Shown here in pieces: positions 1,019-15,228 of a stretch of 34,655 nt of DNA. This stretch comes from a virus. A model generated the notes under the pieces. It was not told where the DNA came from. It made no database searches and saw only the letters and a list, made by a program, of their open reading frames with translations. The position numbers and the translations under genes are program-made. Location: UHGV virus genome UHGV-0219368; one strand, given 5' to 3'. Position 1 is the first letter of the stretch. Every line of letters starts with the position of its first letter.

Positions 1019-1835
1019 TCAATCTGTTTGTGGAGGAATTGCTGGTAGACGCCCCAACGCAACACCAAAAGGCGTTGTCATTCATAACGATGCAGGAAGT
1101 ATTTATGCGACTGCTGCGCAATATGTTAATGCTTTAGCTGTAATGTCTCCTACGCAATTAGCGAATGGTTTTGCTCATTATTATATTGATCGAAATACAA
1201 TTGCACGTGTAGAAGATACATTCAACGCAGCTTGGCATACAGCAAATTCAGATGGAAATTTGAACTATGTTGGTTATGAGGTTTGTCAATCGATGGGCGC
1301 TAGCTATGCAGACTTTTTAGCGAATGAGCAAATGACATTTAAGCAAGTAGCCGAAGATATGAAGTTTTGGGGAATGCAACCTAATAGAGATACTGTAAGA
1401 TTGCACAAAGAATTTGTTCCTACAGCATGTCCTCATCGTTCGTGGGAATTGCATGGAAAAGAAACAAACGCAGTAAAAGACTATTTTATTAGCCAAATAA
1501 AAAAATATATGGGAAATCAAAACGAAAACAATAGCAACTCAAGTAATAACAATCAAAATACAATAAAAGGGAGAGAAGCAACGATGTTTTGTTTATATCA
1601 ACGACCAATTAATAGTAAAACAGGAAAATTAGAAGATAACGGGGATCACTGGGCTACATTCTTCTGTAATGGAGTGAATTGCCGACGTTTATATCATGGC
1701 GATGAGGCAGAAGTAATAAAAACAGTATACAGAGAGAACAACGGAAAAGAAATACCGTTCTTTGGTAAAGAGAAATGGCCTAAAAATGCTCCATGGTACA
1801 AACGTTTAGAGACTGTTTGTCCAGTTGTAAAATAG
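1002..1835 (+). CDS. endolysin: N-acetylmuramoyl-L-alanine amidase (amidase_2/PGRP fold), N/S/Q-rich linker, C-terminal cell-wall-binding domain
   Basis: Track ORF 972..1835. AGGAGG at 985-990 supports ATG 1002. Amidase_2-like motifs: VVIHNDAG, YVGYEVCQS, EFVPTACPH. Linker NQNENNSNSSNNNQN. The C-terminal ~85 aa has no catalytic motifs. An in-frame internal ATG at 1584 carries its own SD (see findings). Confidence 0.8.
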   Translation: MVQVINQSVCGGIAGRRPNATPKGVVIHNDAGSIYATAAQYVNALAVMSPTQLANGFAHYYIDRNTIARVEDTFNAAWHTANSDGNLNYVGYEVCQSMGASYADFLANEQMTFKQVAEDMKFWGMQPNRDTVRLHKEFVPTACPHRSWELHGKETNAVKDYFISQIKKYMGNQNENNSNSSNNNQNTIKGREATMFCLYQRPINSKTGKLEDNGDHWATFFCNGVNCRRLYHGDEAEVIKTVYRENNGKEIPFFGKEKWPKNAPWYKRLETVCPVVK

Positions 1836-1896
1836 CTTGAAATTTAAAAGCATCTGATTTAAAATATAGTTACCTTTTGATATTTCCATATTTGAC

Positions 1897-1920
1897 CTTC
1901 TTTTATGAGAATAAAAGAAG
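1897..1920 (+). terminator. perfect 10-bp hairpin CTTCTTTTAT-gaga-ATAAAAGAAG just after the endolysin
   Basis: Seen directly. AT-rich stem with no U-run, so it is at best a weak terminator or RNA-stability element. Confidence 0.35.
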
Positions 1921-1965
1921 GGTGCACCTATCTTTTTCCAAGTCCTAAGATAGGTGCATTTTTTT
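1921..1965 (+). terminator. strong rho-independent terminator of the late/lysis operon
   Basis: 11-bp stem TGCACCTATCT / AGATAGGTGCA with a 14-nt loop, followed by T7. Confidence 0.7.
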
Positions 1966-2029
1966 GTTGAAATTTAAAAAAGAAAGCGGTAAAATATGTT
2001 TACCAAACTTTTTGTTTTATTACTACTTA

Positions 2030-2063
2030 TTGCCGCCTTTCCCAAACGAGGCGGCAACTTTTT
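2030..2063 (+). terminator. second rho-independent terminator
   Basis: 8-bp stem TTGCCGCC / GGCGGCAA followed by CTTTTT. Confidence 0.6.
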
Positions 2064-2138
2064 ACATAAAAATTATTGAACTCAAAAAACAGATATTGTA
2101 AAATATTGATACATATTTAAACTCTTATTTTTTCACGC

Positions 2139-2173
2139 AGACCGCCTTTTCTCAATAAGACGGTCGTTTTTTT
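2139..2173 (+). terminator. third rho-independent terminator
   Basis: Stem AGACCGCC / GACGGTCG (one mismatch) followed by T7. Confidence 0.55.
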
Positions 2174-2174
2174 G

Positions 2175-2203
2175 TTGAAAATTGAAAATCAGTAAAGTAA
2201 AAT
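2175..2203 (+). promoter_or_regulatory. sigma-A-like promoter for the tRNA and early operon
   Basis: TTGAAA (2175-2180), 17-nt spacer, TAAAAT (2198-2203). Sits directly after the terminator cluster. Confidence 0.45.
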
Positions 2204-2265
2204 TATTATATATCAAGCTATAACCAGTAAGAACTATTTTATCCCCAATAAGGTGGTTCTTACTT

Positions 2266-2339
2266 GGACCATTAGCTCAGCTGGTTAGAGCAAACGGCTC
2301 ATAACCGTTCGGTCACAGGTTCGAGTCCTGTATGGTCCA
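2266..2339 (+). tRNA. tRNA with anticodon CAU (elongator Met or Ile2/lysidine type); no encoded CCA
   Basis: Cloverleaf by hand. Acceptor GGACCAT/ATGGTCC. D-arm GCTC-AGCTGGTTA-GAGC. Anticodon arm AACGG-CTCATAA-CCGTT. T-arm ACAGG-TTCGAGT-CCTGT. Discriminator A. Not an initiator type (G1-C72 pair, no GGG/CCC anticodon stem). Confidence 0.85.
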
Positions 2340-2413
2340 TATATTTTTATTTGCAAATAAAATAATAGAGGAGTAGACTTAAAGTATCAAATGTTTAAGG
2401 AGTGTTATCTATT

Positions 2414-3307
2414 ATGTCAAACTATGAAGAAAAAGAAGCAAAAGCATTAGTAAAAATTGCAGATGTTTTGAACAAACTGGATTCAAATTTAGAAGAATTA
2501 GATTCTCTAAATGAAGATGCAAAAAAACATAGTATGAAAAAATGGCTTGTTGAGAAAAGAGCCATGCATGAAATTAAAAAGATTGCACACGAAGCTGGTA
2601 AGTATGATAAGTACGATGAAAAAGAATTACAAAAAGAAATTGAACATGTATCAGTTGATCGTTCAAAAGCGGATTTAGTTGAACTCGATCCAATTAAACG
2701 AGCAGAAACACTCACAGTTAATTCTTTATCTGGATTAATTGGTTATCTACAATCAAAATTTTCCCATGAAGAAGTTACGTCAAAATTATTAATTCATGTT
2801 GAAAGCCCAACAAACGTTGCTGTTTATTCAGCTTTAGATGCAGACCGTAAGCGTGAAAAAATTATTGAAGCAAAAGCGTTATTAGAAGTGTTTCCATATA
2901 GTCGCTTTATGGATTCAGAAGAATTTATTATTAATGTTCAATCTCTTATTCAACGTGATCTTGATGCAAAAGCTATTCTGGAATGTGCCAGCGCTATTCG
3001 AATTGAAGGTGGGGGAGATTTAGTTGATAACGGAGTTTCTCAAGTTGCTACAGTAAAAGAAGAAGCAGCAACGCTTACAAAAGCAGAAGTACCTAGTCCA
3101 GCAAATTTAAGACCTTATCGAACATTTTTAGAAGTTGAACAGCCAGATAGCCCATTTGTTTTTAGAATCAATAAATATGGTCATTGCGCATTGTTCGAAG
3201 CAGATGGTGGGATTTGGAAACATGTAGCTATGGAACGTATTCATGAATATTTAACTCAATCTTTAAATGAGTATGTTGACAAAGGTTCAGTAACAATTAT
3301 TGCGTAA
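2414..3307 (+). CDS. hypothetical early phage protein (~297 aa)
   Basis: Track ORF 2402..3307. AAGGAG at 2397-2402. The ATG at 2414 is the likelier start, though the track's GTG at 2402 is possible. No motif recognised. Confidence 0.5.
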   Translation: MSNYEEKEAKALVKIADVLNKLDSNLEELDSLNEDAKKHSMKKWLVEKRAMHEIKKIAHEAGKYDKYDEKELQKEIEHVSVDRSKADLVELDPIKRAETLTVNSLSGLIGYLQSKFSHEEVTSKLLIHVESPTNVAVYSALDADRKREKIIEAKALLEVFPYSRFMDSEEFIINVQSLIQRDLDAKAILECASAIRIEGGGDLVDNGVSQVATVKEEAATLTKAEVPSPANLRPYRTFLEVEQPDSPFVFRINKYGHCALFEADGGIWKHVAMERIHEYLTQSLNEYVDKGSVTIIA

Positions 3308-3379
3308 ATAAAAAGAGCCTCACTCGTTTTTTTGACGAGTGAGGACACATACAAAATGAACTAAGGAGAGTATACCAAA

Positions 3380-3718
3380 ATGAACGATAAAATTCAAAAA
3401 TTGATTAAAAAACTAGCAAAAGAATGCCAGAAAGAAGATGTAGCTTTATCTTTGGCAGCTATCGATTTAGAAGGAGAGATGGCAATATCTCAAGTTGGAA
3501 AAGGCACGATAGTAGCCATTGCTGCACATAGCCAATATACACTAACAAAAGAAAAACTGGAACAATCAGATTGTGATTGTCCAAAACATCGTTTATTAAA
3601 AGAGATGTACGGTACTGAAACAGAAACTACGACTAAAAATACACATACTTTTGTCACAGATGATCCAAACGATTTGATGGATATATTATCGAAGATTTTT
3701 CGAGGTGAGTTTAAATGA
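3380..3718 (+). CDS. hypothetical early phage protein
   Basis: Track ORF with RBS AAGGAG at 3363-3368. An intrinsic terminator (3311-3345, GAGCCTCACTCG...CGAGTGAGGAC) precedes it. Confidence 0.5.
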   Translation: MNDKIQKLIKKLAKECQKEDVALSLAAIDLEGEMAISQVGKGTIVAIAAHSQYTLTKEKLEQSDCDCPKHRLLKEMYGTETETTTKNTHTFVTDDPNDLMDILSKIFRGEFK

Positions 3719-3913
3719 CTAGAAAAGAAAAGTTAAACCAAGCAAAAAGATTAGCTGATTTATGGTACAAACAACAAAAAAGTCAACTATACATTGCGCA
3801 ACAAAAAGAGCACAGAGGGATTGCATGATGAAAAAAGCGACTACGCCGCCAAGCAAATAGTCGCATACAAAATTATACTAGAAAAATTGTAACACAGAAA
3901 AGAGGTTTTGTGA

Positions 3914-4231
3914 ATGAATCGTAGAGAAGCAAATGCACTAGACAGATATTTAACAGAGCCGACTGAAAAACCACATAAGGAAACCTATGAAGATGATCCA
4001 GTGGATACTACTGATTATTTTGGAAATGAAATTGCTGATGAAGACGGTGTGTTTGAGATAACTTTTGCAATGAAATGTCTTTATACAGGACAACCAGTAC
4101 TCACTTGTAAAAAAATTGCTACACAAGATACAATCGTTGATTTGATAGAAGAATTAGGCGAAGAAAACGTGTATTTAATTGAATATGTGAGTTCAGGAAA
4201 AAGATATAAGGAGGGCTTATTGAATGACTGA
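3914..4231 (+). CDS. hypothetical early phage protein; overlaps the start of the ERF gene
   Basis: Track ORF. RBS AGAGG. Confidence 0.45.
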   Translation: MNRREANALDRYLTEPTEKPHKETYEDDPVDTTDYFGNEIADEDGVFEITFAMKCLYTGQPVLTCKKIATQDTIVDLIEELGEENVYLIEYVSSGKRYKEGLLND

Positions 4232-4958
4232 AGCAACCAAAACAGATTTTTCTAAGTTGAATGTTTATCAAAAATTAGCGTATGTGAGACAAAAAGCACC
4301 ATATATTCAAAAAAGTAAACGTGGCCAGCAGTACAGCTATGTGGGGTCAAGCGATGTACTATCCGCATTAAATACAGTCATAAATCAAGTTGGATTAATT
4401 TTGAAGCCAGAAATTGTTGCTCATCAAGTTCGGGAATCACAAGATGAGGTATGGAAAGCGGATAAAGTAAAGAAAGAGCCTGTAGCCAAAAAACGTACAA
4501 CGTATTTTACAGAGCTAGAGTTAATGATGACATGGATTAATATTCATAATCCTTCTGAGATTGTTGCTTGTTCATGGTATAGCCAAGGAGTAGATATTGA
4601 AGGAGAAAAGGGGGTAGGAAAAGCACTAACGTATGCGGAAAAATATTTTTTATTGAAATTTTTTAATATTGCAACAGATGATGACGATCCTGATAAATAC
4701 CAAAAAGAACAGCTAAAAAATACTACAATTACTGAACGGCAAATTGATATGTTGAACGCATCAATTAGTAGAGTAGCCGAGCTGGCAGGGCAAGAATTTG
4801 AAGCTGTGAAATCGTTAGCTATAAATGATTCTGATTTGAATCCTAAAAAAGCATTTGAAGAATATAGTGCTTATGATTATGGTGTTATTTCTAAATTGCT
4901 TGCGAAGTGGATAAATTTTTATGAATCTAGGCAGAAGGTTCAAGAAGATAAGAAGTGA
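4224..4958 (+). CDS. erf: ERF-family single-strand annealing protein (recombinase)
   Basis: RBS AAGGAGGG at 4207-4214. Resembles P22 Erf by recall: N-terminal YQKLAYVRQKAPYIQKSKRGQQYSYVGSSDVLSALNTV, and ALTYAEKYFLLKFFNIATDDDDPD versus Erf ATSSYARKYCLNGLFGIDDAKDAD. Located upstream of the replication genes. Confidence 0.7.
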   Translation: MTEATKTDFSKLNVYQKLAYVRQKAPYIQKSKRGQQYSYVGSSDVLSALNTVINQVGLILKPEIVAHQVRESQDEVWKADKVKKEPVAKKRTTYFTELELMMTWINIHNPSEIVACSWYSQGVDIEGEKGVGKALTYAEKYFLLKFFNIATDDDDPDKYQKEQLKNTTITERQIDMLNASISRVAELAGQEFEAVKSLAINDSDLNPKKAFEEYSAYDYGVISKLLAKWINFYESRQKVQEDKK

Positions 4959-11455: not shown

Positions 11456-11527
11456 TGGGATATAGCTTAACTGGTAGAGCAGTGGTCTCCAAAACCGTCG
11501 GTATAGGTTCGACTCCTATTGTTCCAG
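11456..11527 (+). tRNA. tRNA-Trp (anticodon CCA)-like gene; U1-A72 first pair; no encoded CCA
   Basis: Hand-folded. Acceptor TGGGATA/TGTTCCA (two G-U pairs). D-arm GCTT-AACTGGTA-GAGC. Anticodon arm GTGGT-CTCCAAA-ACCGT. Variable loop CGGT. T-arm ATAGG-TTCGACT-CCTAT. Discriminator G. Layout parallels Bacillus tRNA-Trp by recall. The track ORF 11449..11637 is therefore spurious. Confidence 0.65.
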
Positions 11528-11592
11528 TAAGTAGCTTTTGCTGCTTAAATAAAATTAGGATCGTCAATAGATGTTTCTACTACATTCATTAT

Positions 11593-11622
11593 GAGACACT
11601 AGCAAGCTGGTGTCTCTTTTTT
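11593..11622 (+). terminator. rho-independent terminator after the tRNA-Trp
   Basis: Stem GAGACAC / GTGTCTC followed by T6. Confidence 0.65.
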
Positions 11623-11643
11623 ATTTGTAAGTATTAGTTACAC

Positions 11644-11672
11644 TTGACCGAACGTTCGTTCTCGTTTATAAT
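11644..11672 (+). promoter_or_regulatory. consensus sigma-A promoter TTGACC-N17-TATAAT; the spacer holds a perfect 10-bp palindrome CGAACGTTCG (putative operator)
   Basis: Seen directly. Confidence 0.55.
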
Positions 11673-11744
11673 ATAAATTGTAATCCTTATGATTATATCT
11701 ACTAGAAAGAAGTCAAGAAAAATGCTTGTTTTTCTGTCTTCTTT

Positions 11745-11772
11745 TTGATTTAATTATTTTAGTAGGTATAAT
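11745..11772 (+). promoter_or_regulatory. second promoter-like element TTGATT-N16-TATAAT just upstream of the cassette RBS
   Basis: Seen directly. RBS AAGGAG at 11779-11784, ATG at 11794. Confidence 0.4.
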
Positions 11773-11793
11773 TAAATAAGGAGTGTTTATTAA

Positions 11794-12717
11794 ATGGTAA
11801 ACAAGAAGAGACAAGTAAGATTTGAATTTTTCCAGGTCAATGGAAAAGCTCAAGAAGGAGAAAAAATTGTAAAAGGACTTTTCGATCTATATCCATTAGC
11901 TGATAGGATAAATAGTATAAGTAACTATACTGATAGAGATGTTATTCTTTTTGGGGAAAAAGTTAGAATGGACAGATTTTTTGAGGTTTCTAGTAGTCCA
12001 GAATTATATGCAATGCATTTTACTAGATTAAGAAATGATAAACCTGCGTATGTAGAATTAAATAATGAAGTTTTGAAAGAAATTCCGTTAAATCCTGGAG
12101 AATATATTGCTGAGGATATTAGTTGCTTGTATGATAGAGAGCTATCTGTTTTAATGGTACAAAGAAATATTCATAGTTTGTCACCTTCAGGTATTGAAGA
12201 TTATTTTACTGAAATGAGTGATGATTTAGTAGAGATTGAATTATTGCCAGTTGTAAATAAAGAGATTATTAGTAAAGCCTTAGCTAATGAAAAATTTCGT
12301 AAACTAGAGTTAAGAGCAGGTTCTATGAATACAACTAGTGATAGAAGTGGATTGAGAAAAGTATTAGGTCCTTTTATGGAACTATTTGAGAAATTTGAAG
12401 GTACAAATTTTGTTATAGAAATTAGTTCAGGGAGATCAAAAAAAGATTTATCAGAAGATCAAATGAAAGAAGTAATAACAGCAATTGAACAAGATAAGAG
12501 TTTATTTAGTTCAGCAATTGTTTCAGCAAAAAAATCAAAAGAGGTACCTGTTGAAAAGTATGATTTAATAAATGGAAAGCTCTATGTGTATCGTTCTTTT
12601 GATTTGCCAGATGGTGCATTTTTAAAATCAGATAGTGTTATAGACAATATTAAAAATTATTATTTTCATCCTAATGAAGGTGGGTATAGAAAACAAATTA
12701 TCGATGCTGTAAAATAG
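11794..12717 (+). CDS. hypothetical soluble protein (307 aa), first gene of the AT-rich accessory cassette
   Basis: Strong RBS. No recognisable catalytic motif (no Walker, HNH, GS-DxD or Cys clusters). Visibly AT-rich codon usage compared with the flanking phage genes. Confidence 0.6.
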   Translation: MVNKKRQVRFEFFQVNGKAQEGEKIVKGLFDLYPLADRINSISNYTDRDVILFGEKVRMDRFFEVSSSPELYAMHFTRLRNDKPAYVELNNEVLKEIPLNPGEYIAEDISCLYDRELSVLMVQRNIHSLSPSGIEDYFTEMSDDLVEIELLPVVNKEIISKALANEKFRKLELRAGSMNTTSDRSGLRKVLGPFMELFEKFEGTNFVIEISSGRSKKDLSEDQMKEVITAIEQDKSLFSSAIVSAKKSKEVPVEKYDLINGKLYVYRSFDLPDGAFLKSDSVIDNIKNYYFHPNEGGYRKQIIDAVK

Positions 12718-12741
12718 TTTAAAGAAGAGGGGTGAGATATC

Positions 12742-13212
12742 ATGAACAAGGAACATCATATATTTTTTTGGATTTTTCCATTTTTAACTGGTGCTGTATT
12801 TGTCTTGATATGTTCGTTAACCCAATTTTCTTATAATGACAAAGGGTTTGATAACTTATTAGATTCTATGATTAATTTTACTTCAATCATTATAGGTTTC
12901 TATTCGGCTTTTTATGGAATTCTTATAACTATAAAAGATACTAGTTTTATGAAGAATATACGAGGATCTGCTATAGAAAAAAAATTAAAATATCAACTCT
13001 TTATATCTTTATTAAGTGCATTTACTACTTTGATACTATCAATGATGCTCCAAATATTTCAGTATAAAGAGACCTTTGCTTCAATCCTAATATTTTATAT
13101 ATGGACATTTTTCTCAGGGCTGTTTATGGCGTTGTCTTTACAGACTATTATTTTGAGTTTAGAAATAGTTTTTGAATCTGAACCAAAAAAGAAAAGGTTC
13201 ATTAATAAATAA
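12742..13212 (+). CDS. small integral membrane protein with four predicted TM helices (156 aa)
   Basis: RBS GAGGGGTGAG. Hydrophobic segments at about aa 7-26, 44-64, 85-105 and 114-139. C-terminal KKKRFINK. Confidence 0.6.
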   Translation: MNKEHHIFFWIFPFLTGAVFVLICSLTQFSYNDKGFDNLLDSMINFTSIIIGFYSAFYGILITIKDTSFMKNIRGSAIEKKLKYQLFISLLSAFTTLILSMMLQIFQYKETFASILIFYIWTFFSGLFMALSLQTIILSLEIVFESEPKKKRFINK

Positions 13213-13269
13213 GAACAGTTATTTTTTAATCAATGGCATGCAGATTCAACTCCTGCCACGTCGATATAA

Positions 13270-13297
13270 AGATCACTCAGTAAGTGGTCTTTTTTTC
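13270..13297 (+). terminator. rho-independent terminator ending the two-gene unit
   Basis: Stem AGATCACT / AGTGGTCT (one G-U), loop CAGTA, T7. Confidence 0.6.
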
Positions 13298-13310
13298 GTA
13301 CATAAAAAAA

Positions 13311-13334
13311 CCACTAGACTATGGGATCTAGTGG
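13311..13334 (+). repeat. perfect 8-bp inverted repeat CCACTAGA-n8-TCTAGTGG (copy 1 of a repeated ~30-bp unit CATRAAAAA-CCACYAGA...TCTAGTGGC)
   Basis: Seen directly. Confidence 0.45.
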
Positions 13335-13469
13335 CTAGGTAGCGTTAGTGAAAATCTCGTGTCACTTGTAGTTTATGAACTTTAGCTATTATGAAAGAGT
13401 GCTACCTAAAACAAGTGTAACATAGCTGTCAAGTTTTGTCGGATATTTGGATTGTTTTCGCATGAAAAA

Positions 13470-13492
13470 CCACCAGATAAAATATCTAGTGG
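13470..13492 (+). repeat. copy 2 of the same hairpin unit (CCACCAGA-n7-TCTAGTGG), preceded by CATGAAAAA
   Basis: Seen directly. Confidence 0.45.
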
Positions 13493-13635
13493 CCAGACAG
13501 CAGATTATGTTTTGAAATAACTGGAAGTGTTACATGAAGCAAAAAGGAGTTGCTGTCTTTCAATGAGTATAACAGGGATTAAAGTGTTTGTCTTACAATA
13601 AACAAATATACATAAAAACAATTAGGAGAGAGAAC

Positions 13636-13869
13636 ATGAAAAGCTATTGGTAGGTATCGTTAACACATGAATATCCACATCCGAAGCACTCAACTGTTTC
13701 AATGCGTGTTGTAATGTCTGTGCAGATAAAAAAGAATGCATCTATTTTTGAAATGACGAGAGAAGCCACGCCAAAGGAAATTGATGATTGTAAGCTTGTT
13801 TATTGTGGGCATGGTTTCTTTGATGAAGCAGACATTCAAAATAATATTAACAAGAATTTGATGGATTAG
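13636..13869 (+). pseudogene. 77-codon ORF with strong RBS (AGGAGAG) interrupted by an in-frame TAG at codon 6 (MKSYW*VSLTHEYPHP...KLVYCGHGFFDEADIQNNINKNLMD)
   Basis: Seen directly. ATG 13636, TAG 13651-13653, frame open to TAG 13867-13869. Confidence 0.3.
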
Positions 13870-13925
13870 AATGCAAATTGAATTAATTTTCTGATTTAAA
13901 AATATTGATTGAGGATAATCTTAAG

Positions 13926-13954
13926 TTGAAAGATATCGATAGTTAGTAGATAAT
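13926..13954 (+). promoter_or_regulatory. promoter-like TTGAAA-N17-GATAAT upstream of the third cassette gene
   Basis: Seen directly. RBS GAGGTG before ATG 13981. Confidence 0.35.
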
Positions 13955-13980
13955 TAAAATAAAACTATCGAGGTGCAAAA

Positions 13981-14793
13981 ATGTTAGAAGCTTTATTTTG
14001 GGATCACAACGGGGATTTTCAGTCGGCAACTGCAGCTGCTGCAGTTGCTCTTATAGGAGCTATAATTTCAGCTGTATTTTCTTGGTTAAGCTATAAAAAT
14101 TCTGTGAAGACTGCCGAAAGACAATATATAATGGAACAAAAGAAAATTGATGCCAATTTAAAAGCAAAGGCAAGGATAGAATGGATAATTGGCGTAAGAG
14201 ATAAAACATCAGAACTTGTTTCTTTGCTGCTTTCGTTACAAAAGGAAAAAACTGTTTTCTATGAGCAATGGTTGGAAATTGAAAAGGTATCTGAGCTATT
14301 AAAATTATATTTTAATTCAAAAATGAATAAAAAAGTTAATTCAGAAATATACATTGAACAAAATAAAATAATTATTTCTGAGACTGCTACATCTATAGTT
14401 TTAAAAGAAAATAACAATATTAATAAACACGCATATATAAAAAAATACATTGAGTGTTTAGTTGAATTGTATAAAGATGACAACTATAAAAATATTTCAA
14501 ATAAAATAAGATTTTATCATGATTCAATAAATAAATTGTATGAAGATAATTTTGAATATTGGATGTCACATGAGCAATCAGAATTAGAGAAAATTAAGAA
14601 CACACCACCAGAAAAATTAGAAGGTGAAGATTATGATTATGTGGCTGCAGAGAAGAATATTGAGCATTATCAAAGAAAAATAAAAGATATAGAAGTTAGT
14701 TTAACAAACTATCATAAAGCTATTGATTTCTTTACAACAGTTATATCCTTATATTTAAAAATAGAATGGGATAAAGCCAAAGAAGGCCAGTAA
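13981..14793 (+). CDS. N-terminally membrane-anchored (single TM, about aa 17-36) alpha-helical protein, 270 aa, extremely AT-rich
   Basis: Track ORF. AAAAVALIGAIISAVFSWLSY is a TM helix. The rest is K/E/N-rich and helical. Confidence 0.6.
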   Translation: MLEALFWDHNGDFQSATAAAAVALIGAIISAVFSWLSYKNSVKTAERQYIMEQKKIDANLKAKARIEWIIGVRDKTSELVSLLLSLQKEKTVFYEQWLEIEKVSELLKLYFNSKMNKKVNSEIYIEQNKIIISETATSIVLKENNNINKHAYIKKYIECLVELYKDDNYKNISNKIRFYHDSINKLYEDNFEYWMSHEQSELEKIKNTPPEKLEGEDYDYVAAEKNIEHYQRKIKDIEVSLTNYHKAIDFFTTVISLYLKIEWDKAKEGQ

Positions 14794-14958
14794 CAGTATT
14801 GTAAATTACTCAATTTAATTAGGCATTTATAGGATAGTTGAAAGCAGTTAAGCTAATATATGGTACTGTAAGTTAAATTAAAGTTTGCTGAGATACTTTT
14901 TTTTCGATTTGTCATACGCTATACTTAAATTCATAACGTTGATTTTAATAACAAATTT

Positions 14959-15153
14959 ATGAACGGAGATGTCGATATGTCAAGAGCTTTTGAAGATGAA
15001 CAAGATAAACAAGCTAGAATGGAAGCAGCAAGAAAGTATTATAATGGTGAACAAAAATGTGATAACTGTGGACATTTATTTTACCCAAATGAAAATGATC
15101 CTGAACAATTTGTATGCGATAAGTGTATTGAACATGCAATGAACCGAGATTGA
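14959..15153 (+). CDS. small Zn-ribbon protein (CDNCGH...CDKCIEH)
   Basis: Track ORF. RBS ACGGAGATG. Confidence 0.5.
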   Translation: MNGDVDMSRAFEDEQDKQARMEAARKYYNGEQKCDNCGHLFYPNENDPEQFVCDKCIEHAMNRD

Positions 15154-15228
15154 GTATTATACTTGGAAAGACTGCTTATTTGAATAGTAGTCTTTTTTTA
15201 TACATAAAATTATACTGGAGGTGAGGTC

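Follow-up and report, generated by a model that had tools for sequence, protein, structure and literature searches.

The viral genome UHGV-0219368, 34,655 nucleotides (nt) long and here called the window, falls in the phiFL1/phiFL2 (Phifelvirus) group of Enterococcus faecalis phages. An AT-rich cassette, positions 11586-14958, has an arpU family regulator (TIGR01637, E 7e-39) and a tRNA-Trp (11456-11527) upstream and terS/terL downstream. An earlier note, made from the letters of the window, had placed three open reading frames (ORFs), here A, B and C, between arpU/tRNA-Trp and terS and had read them as one cassette encoding a soluble protein, a protein with four transmembrane (TM) helices and a membrane protein with a single TM helix. 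Position, coordinates, sizes and topologies of the three ORFs are correct; the unity of the cassette is not. Genes A and B form a pair of their own. By analogy with lambda rexA-rexB this pair is probably a two-component exclusion (abortive-infection) module of the Rex type, carried as accessory cargo by Enterococcus prophages. Its features are as follows.

11644-13212, plus strand: module 1, consisting of promoter, leader hairpin sequestering the ribosome-binding site (RBS), gene A and gene B
11644..11672, plus strand: promoter P1 of the A+B module (TTGACC, 17 nt, TATAAT), agreeing with the consensus at 11 of 12 positions, the best such match of the region
11684..11785, plus strand: conserved 5' leader hairpin, in which an anti-Shine-Dalgarno UCCUU pairs with the Shine-Dalgarno AAGGA of gene A
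11794..12717, plus strand: gene A, 307 amino acids (aa), soluble, without TM segment; Pfam DUF6731, putative sensor/DNA-binding component
12742..13212, plus strand: gene B, 156 aa, TM helices 7-25, 46-64, 87-105 and 115-133; obligate partner of A, putative membrane effector
12970..12977, plus strand: A8 homopolymer in gene B; A7 in other E. faecalis genomes, by which B is cut to 81 aa

Genes A and B

Protein A, for which the earlier note had no assignable motif, belongs to Pfam family DUF6731 (PF20505; E 3.5e-107, 358.7 bits against a cut-off of 27, residues 4-301), as do all 70 aligned relatives. It is also a member of phrog_10865 and weakly matches the PADLOC candidate PDC-M67A (E 1.6e-5, residues 77-292). 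A search of the literature found no paper mentioning DUF6731. The DUF6731 profile collects 1,404 clusters at 50% identity (704 at E<=1e-10), and the best 150 clusters mostly show single-stretch matches in proteins of about 300 aa. At the loci which were fetched, relatives of A came from Enterococcus, a Limosilactobacillus genome, Listeria phages and Aeribacillus phages. UniRef once labelled the identical protein (Q833D8_ENTFA) a 'DUF4747 family protein', and current Pfam gives no DUF4747 match for A or the 70 relatives. DUF4747 is a weak motif common to RexA and three proteins with experimentally shown defence activity, Sbash gp30, CarolAnn gp44 and Butters gp30 (PMC6426606, PMC6426596, PMC7542560).

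The closest characterised relative of A is lambda RexA. An AlphaFold2 model of A was built with 18 homologues (predicted local distance difference test, pLDDT, 78.6; predicted template-modelling score, pTM, 0.71). When it was compared with the PDB by Foldseek, RexA emerged on top (E 2.4e-8, probability 1.00). RdgC is another structural neighbour, to which RexA is far superior as a match; the paper on the RexA crystal structure itself reports RdgC as a structural relative (PMC11077077). A DUF6731 profile made from 70 sequences and a RexA profile made from 25 were aligned by hhalign with a probability of 89% (E 2.3e-6) across 259 collinear columns spanning both proteins. Unrelated profile pairs, used as negative controls, yielded 0.6% and 3.4%. 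The identity between A and RexA is about 9-14%. Sequence searches of the PDB with A as a single sequence or as a profile returned nothing, and a fold search in BFVD returned mostly unnamed viral proteins and no further functional lead. The kinship with RexA is thus visible only by fold and by profile-profile comparison, because sequence-to-HMM (hidden Markov model) searches and PDB sequence searches miss it. Taken at this level, the profile alignment and the predicted structure show A to be a remote homologue of RexA with a RexA fold.

Gene B begins 24 nt past A and has its own RBS. The arrangement recurs at other loci. Twenty-five loci, i.e., those with an intact A gene and readable downstream DNA, could be scored. 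At 24 of them the gene next to A starts at -4 to +43 nt and codes for 155-189 aa with 3-4 predicted TM helices; the exception, an IMG/VR locus (L024), has a frameshifted copy of B. The partners are one family with a mean column identity of 42%, a motif F.SIIIGFYSAFYG and an invariant core F.S..IGF...G in helix 2. Conserved residues include G52/F53 and Q104 in B, and R80, E107, D114, Q123/N125 and E254/D257 in A. Where the A proteins are 20-26% identical to that of the window, as in Aeribacillus phage AP45 (gp35/gp36) and the two metagenomic contigs tested, their partners still match the B HMM at 1e-18 to 1e-23, and therefore A and B have co-evolved as a pair across the family. These comparisons show the synteny of A and B to be obligate. 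B matches no Pfam or PADLOC family, PF15968 included. The TM helices of lambda RexB (8-26, 48-66, 84-102, 116-134) nearly coincide with those of B, and a single-sequence structure model of B consists of four long helices at low confidence (pLDDT 63).

The arpU-terS slot and its modules

The cassette has a guanine-plus-cytosine (GC) content of 29.0%, the remaining window one of 35.0%. Equally long windows elsewhere average 34.8% with a standard deviation of 1.3 and a minimum of 32.6%, thus the cassette is about 4.4 standard deviations low. At third codon positions genes A, B and C have 15-24% GC as against 23-32% in seven genes elsewhere in the window. The AT-richness which the earlier note had judged by eye is real. 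So is its view of a horizontally exchanged cargo in a variable slot, which is borne out by comparison with the related phages phiFL2A, phiFL1A and SEsuP-1. The cassette is absent from phiFL2A, which presents the empty site: agreement with the window stops at 11579 and is restored at 15190, and only about 30 nt of phiFL2A separate the two flanks. Between arpU and terS there is a genuine variable slot, and the cassette is a true insertion.

Other phages have filled the slot differently. In phiFL1A and SEsuP-1 it holds another pair, gp35/gp36, plus DUF5677 or a 119-aa gene. Their gp35 (phiFL1A, L001 5030-5644; SEsuP-1, L003 4977-5591) is annotated as hypothetical and is a homologue of AbiN (PADLOC E 6.8e-62); gp36, directly after it, is a hydrophobic protein of 52 aa. 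Phage vB_ElaS_B1578 has four different genes in the slot. At locus L016 (region 1272-3298), in a distant relative, the DUF6731 + TM pair lies upstream of ParB-methyltransferase and terS and about 700 nt downstream of an AAA_21 + RloB pair, with a 157-aa gene between. This, too, marks the region ahead of the terminase as a defence hotspot. With its conserved flanks and shared leader the arpU-terS site emerges as such a hotspot, and it could be mined for more systems.

The insert is a mosaic of independently moving modules, in which A+B is one module and C an unrelated passenger. A prophage of E. termitis and a phage from IMG/VR share 73% identity with the window over 11644-13212, a segment that opens with the -35 box and closes with the B stop codon. 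The following slot spacer (13270-13642) is 96-98% identical in phiFL1A and SEsuP-1, where it lies downstream of different cargo. In prophage L045, A and B are present and C is absent; similarity to the window ends at 13642, approximately at the start of a small gene, and a 119-aa gene and a different terminase follow in place of C. The 31 loci with an A homologue included no C. Conversely, neither A nor B was seen at the 22 IMG/VR loci where C has a homologue, and at several of these C is the sole occupant of the arpU-terS gap. These neighbourhood statistics rest on IMG/VR and look-up loci because a profile scan of genome contigs with an 18-sequence alignment of A gave a single locus, in Limosilactobacillus alvi.

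It could be argued that A, B, C and the small gene between B and C are a single system of three or four genes. They are neighbours, are alike in their AT-richness, and occur together in many E. faecalis prophages (L043, L044, L046). Yet L045 has A+B without C, C and A+B avoid each other at all loci counted above, two terminators part C from B, and C has a promoter-like site of its own. We find a single system scarcely credible, and the one three-gene cassette of the earlier note is to be given up.

The A+B pair is shown to be accessory and mobile. Of 31 further loci with A, at least 17 have the pair behind arpU; in prophages of E. lactis and E. casseliflavus it follows the endolysin. At locus L029 arpU is 96% identical to that of the window, but the A+B allele is divergent (32% and 37% identity). 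As a separate observation, the end of an E. casseliflavus prophage with a DUF6731 pair (L010) also encodes, between two amidase genes, a 754-aa protein (2325-4589) with three delta-endotoxin domains, Endotoxin_N, Endotoxin_M and Endotoxin_C.

The window itself is devoid of a lysogeny module, as the earlier note had stated for the phage. Holin (605-1018) and amidase (972-1835) are followed by a tRNA-Met (2265-2340), a 301-aa ORF (2402-3307, phrog_1029) and early genes. Related prophages have integrase, SHOCT, ImmA and a cI-like repressor at this position. The window therefore looks like a permuted genome in which the lysogeny module was lost or replaced. The statement does not extend to the cassette: the same cassette resides in integrated E. 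faecalis prophages with integrase, ImmA and a cI-like repressor. In L043, L044 and L046 it has 99.0-99.9% nucleotide identity to that of the window. An A protein of identical sequence is recorded on 859 contigs. Four of its chromosomal sites were shown, and at three of these integrase, SHOCT, ImmA and a cI-like repressor precede it by about 10 kb.

The expression signals of module 1 are conserved along with its genes. The unit shared with the relatives from E. termitis and IMG/VR has P1 as its left boundary; P1 has been retained alongside the cargo, and its -10 box is invariant among four sequences. Promoter-like matches overall are not enriched in the region (27 vs 23.4 +/- 5.4). The earlier note had named two promoters, of which the one at 11644-11672 stands; the other, at 11745-11772, lies within the 3' arm of the leader hairpin. 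A perfect palindrome, CGAACGTTCG (11650-11665), fills the spacer of P1 between the -35 and -10 boxes; its GAACGTT is invariant among the four sequences, and it may be an operator.

The 115-nt leader has a minimum free energy of -33.9 kcal/mol, compared with -16.9 +/- 3 in shuffles (z -5.7). The leader was located at window 11679-11800, L012 5879-6007, L019 4877-4998 and L013 1168-1290. Its hairpin is retained in the relatives from E. termitis and IMG/VR, and compensatory changes are present in 6 of 37 pairs across 3-4 sequences, a modest body of covariation evidence given four sequences only. The leader hairpin also precedes gp56 of B1578, the first cargo gene there. A comparison of gp56 with DUF6731 found the two unrelated. 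Because an unrelated gene has the same leader, the leader looks like an expression platform of the slot and not like a part of one cargo. An Rfam search of leader and spacer gave no match except the tRNA.

The other features in and around the insert are listed next.

11593..11622 (hairpin 11593-11616), plus strand: intrinsic-terminator-like hairpin with T-run after tRNA-Trp, just inside the insert, the left flank shared with phiFL2A ending at 11579
13268-13292 (plus strand) and 13336-13309 (minus strand): back-to-back terminator-like hairpins at the start of the slot spacer 13270-13642
13636..13869, plus strand: gp58-like small gene, homologue of vB_ElaS_B1578 gp58 (phrog_1202, annotated 'DarA-domain'), 67% aa identity
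13926..13954, plus strand: promoter-like site before gene C (TTGAAA, 17 nt, GATAAT), a pattern match only
13981..14793, plus strand: gene C, 270 aa, single N-terminal TM helix 18-36; an independent moron
14959..15153, plus strand: zinc-ribbon ORF, 64 aa, still within the insert relative to phiFL2A (right flank from 15190)

Terminator-like sites are enriched (5 found vs 1.0 +/- 1.0 in shuffles), and both terminators proposed in the earlier note are represented by hairpins, at 11593-11616 and 13268-13292. What it had called a structured spacer resolves into conserved slot DNA (13270-13642) and a nonsense-mutated small gene (13636-13869). Within the slot DNA two similar hairpin elements, 13306-13336 and 13465-13501 (AAAAACCAC(T/C)AGA ... 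ATCTAGTGGC), are spaced 158-159 nt apart. The first coincides with the minus-strand match of the terminator scan. L043 and L044 have about 160 nt of additional sequence at these elements, and no ORF or Rfam family accounts for them.

The small gene retains a good RBS; its sixth codon (13651-13653) is an in-frame TAG in place of the Tyr of gp58. From its sequence it would be either a pseudogene or a gene restarting at Met 13702. A database entry, PQ554527.1 ('Acinetobacter phage D2SVT'), has 81% nucleotide identity to the enterococcal gp58-like segment. This equals the match of vB_ElaS_B1578, which suggests that the entry is mislabelled or contaminated.

Protein C is a member of phrog_19998 (E 1.7e-34) and homologous to gp59 of B1578, with conserved motifs beside the TM helix and at the C-terminus. 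In searches of Pfam, NCBIfam and PADLOC it had no match; it matches phrog_19998 and relatives in the same slot only. Speculatively, C may be a membrane-anchored exclusion protein, which would be a plausible role for a moron of this kind.

Proposed function and alternatives

Of all phage exclusion systems Rex has been known the longest, yet how it works and how far it has spread are still poorly understood. To our knowledge, relatives have been recognised only in lambdoid phages of enterobacteria and in a few actinophages. Several observations favour a Rex-type exclusion module at 11644-13212. Gene order and sizes of A+B match rexA-rexB, the kinship of A with RexA extends over the full length, and the pair occupies the slot which in the sibling phages phiFL1A and SEsuP-1 holds AbiN. 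For a soluble protein paired with a 4-TM protein, in a slot where sibling phages have AbiN, the best reading is a role in exclusion or abortive infection, as the earlier note had surmised.

Modelled on RexA, A would be a cytoplasmic protein with a RexA fold, probably a dimeric, non-specific DNA-binding sensor, and B a small inner-membrane protein of four helices. In the prophage the pair would be transcribed, moron-like, from its own sigma-70-type promoter, while translation of A would be held back by the leader hairpin hiding its RBS. Upon infection by an unrelated phage a phage product or a DNA-protein intermediate would activate A, and activated A would turn B conducting or disruptive. Membrane potential and ATP would then collapse and the infection abort. 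We infer anti-phage activity of A+B, sensing of DNA or of a trigger by A, the direction of signalling, gating of B, and membrane depolarisation or ion leak from the analogy to lambda, Sbash and CarolAnn.

A number of points weigh against this assignment. The hhalign value of 89% for A and RexA falls short of certainty, the global template-modelling score (TM-score) does not exceed about 0.4, and residues 99-107, which form the conserved motif of A, are in a low-confidence loop of the model. Neither Pfam PF15969 nor the PADLOC RexA model matches A at E<=1, and Pfam RexA touches one of the 70 A relatives (E 0.021). As a positive control lambda RexA scores 1e-97 and 1e-108, and the lambda proteins RexA and RexB taken together score 1e-61 to 1e-108 against these RexA/RexB models. 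Aligned by hhalign, the B family and the RexB family show no profile similarity (0.5%), nor does the B profile resemble CarolAnn gp43, taken as a single sequence. The A+B pair is not linked to a repressor, unlike in lambda, and the physiological role of Rex itself is debated (PMC11077077). Finally, the 81-aa frameshifted B, of the type seen in L044 (10949-11419), is present on 185 contigs, the intact B on 751. This indicates that A+B is often dispensable, being lost or switched off. The change from A8 to A7 may reflect slipped-strand switching or the recurrent inactivation of a costly gene.

Other functions for the pair can be imagined. In a Kiwa-like, non-abortive scheme B would sense the perturbation of the membrane at DNA entry and free or activate A, which would clamp the DNA and block replication and late transcription, and the cell would survive. 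The composition is the same, since Kiwa has a 4-TM protein and a soluble protein of about 310 aa (bioRxiv 10.1101/2023.02.26.530102), and RexA and RdgC, the structural neighbours of A, bind DNA non-specifically (PMC11077077). Nevertheless, the proteins of the window match neither DUF4868 nor KwaA or KwaB in Pfam and PADLOC, DUF4868 is absent from the 70 A relatives, the order of A and B is the reverse of kwaA-kwaB, and no Kiwa chain is among the top fold matches in the PDB. We regard such a scheme as unlikely. If instead A were an RdgC-like factor for anti-defence or host takeover, inhibiting RecA or another DNA-processing host defence, B would be a mere anchor. For an inhibitor of the RdgC type a conserved, co-evolving 4-TM partner is unexpected, A matches RexA far better than RdgC, and the location among Abi (abortive-infection) genes and expression in prophages from a sigma-70-type promoter point to defence. 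This makes the anti-defence proposal very improbable.

A further alternative dispenses with defence altogether. A+B may serve the cycle of the phage itself, A tuning the decision between lysis and lysogeny as reported for RexA, B guarding phage or host proteins from proteolysis or preventing self-exclusion, roles that have been proposed for RexB. In lambda, RexA biases the bistable switch with no need of RexB (PMC11077077), and a cassette so common among prophages of E. faecalis (859 contigs have exactly this A sequence) would suit such a role. Against this, the pair is found in moron slots of the late region, behind arpU or the lysin, and not beside the repressor; it is also present in the window, where any repressor module is lacking. 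Closely related phages are without A+B, and so it is not needed for their cycle. We consider a function of this kind quite unlikely and prefer the Rex-type exclusion module.

In its most extended form the proposal would be that DUF6731 with its 4-TM partner is a large, unrecognised Firmicute branch of the Rex superfamily which defence finders miss, that it is an active, broad Abi system in clinical E. faecalis lineages, that its output is set by a Shine-Dalgarno-sequestering leader common to other cargo of the slot, and that it is switched off in some lineages via A8 slippage. We put this forward tentatively, as possible and on balance rather doubtful. If true, the Rex-type system would extend to Gram-positive hosts, and a well-populated Firmicute branch with a co-evolving membrane partner would offer enough sequences to trace which functional residues are conserved in either component. 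If A+B is active, the host range of therapeutic enterococcal phages would be affected; identical A is carried by hundreds of E. faecalis assemblies and goes unreported by annotation of the PADLOC type.

Comparison with known systems

Membership of A+B in Kiwa, to which the earlier note had likened the pair by size and topology, is rejected. A profile HMM search of 11794..12717 for DUF4868 gave no match, and DUF6731 was found instead; the 70 relatives are equally devoid of DUF4868, and neither A nor B matches a Kwa model of PADLOC. The likeness is confined to a 4-TM protein next to a soluble protein of about 310 aa, which in Kiwa is a DNA binder; besides the missing family matches and the opposite gene order the two differ in the fold, KwaB being described as a Rossmann-like domain plus DUF4868 (bioRxiv 10.1101/2023.02.26.530102). 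PADLOC PDC-M67 shares with the pair the weak match of A to its component A. B matches no PADLOC model, and PDC-M67 is itself a computational candidate only. AbiN of lactococci (PADLOC PDLC02349) is connected to A+B by location, i.e., by the identical arpU-terS slot in phiFL1A and SEsuP-1 and the same conserved spacer. AbiN consists of one protein only, has a hydrophobic segment at its N-terminus and is unrelated in sequence to A, B and C.

The actinophage systems Sbash gp30/gp31, CarolAnn gp44/gp43 and Butters gp30/gp31 are Rex-like. Each consists of a soluble prophage protein and a downstream 4-TM protein and has a weak remote link to RexA; Sbash gp30/gp31 resembles A+B further in having its own promoter away from the repressor (PMC6426606). 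All three are experimentally shown defences for which membrane depolarisation has been proposed (PMC6426596, PMC6426606, PMC7542560), and 'DUF4747/CarolAnn' counts among the recognised immune operons in a paper of 2026. The actinophage Rex-like systems differ from A+B in their soluble components of about 370 aa and in hosts of a different phylum. With single CarolAnn sequences hhalign gave 0.2% for the DUF6731 profile and gp44 and 0.1% for the B profile and gp43; single sequences are insensitive here, as lambda RexA alone reached 3.6%.

Lambda RexA/RexB (PF15969, PF15968; PDB 8TWQ) is the nearest counterpart. It differs from A+B in several respects: A+B is situated outside a cI immunity operon, has its own promoter and a leader that sequesters the Shine-Dalgarno sequence, and resides in Firmicute hosts; B is without detectable similarity to RexB, and A is invisible to RexA HMMs. 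Conversely, in both cases a RexA-fold protein of about 280-310 aa is followed by a 4-TM protein of about 145-155 aa with nearly co-positioned helices. Both pairs are carried by temperate phages, both are expressed as accessory functions, and A and RexA share a remote profile homology over their full length. The term uncharacterised in the earlier note is therefore apt as to experiments and not as to kind: A+B is a distant, previously unrecognised relative of Rex, and the kind of system is already known.

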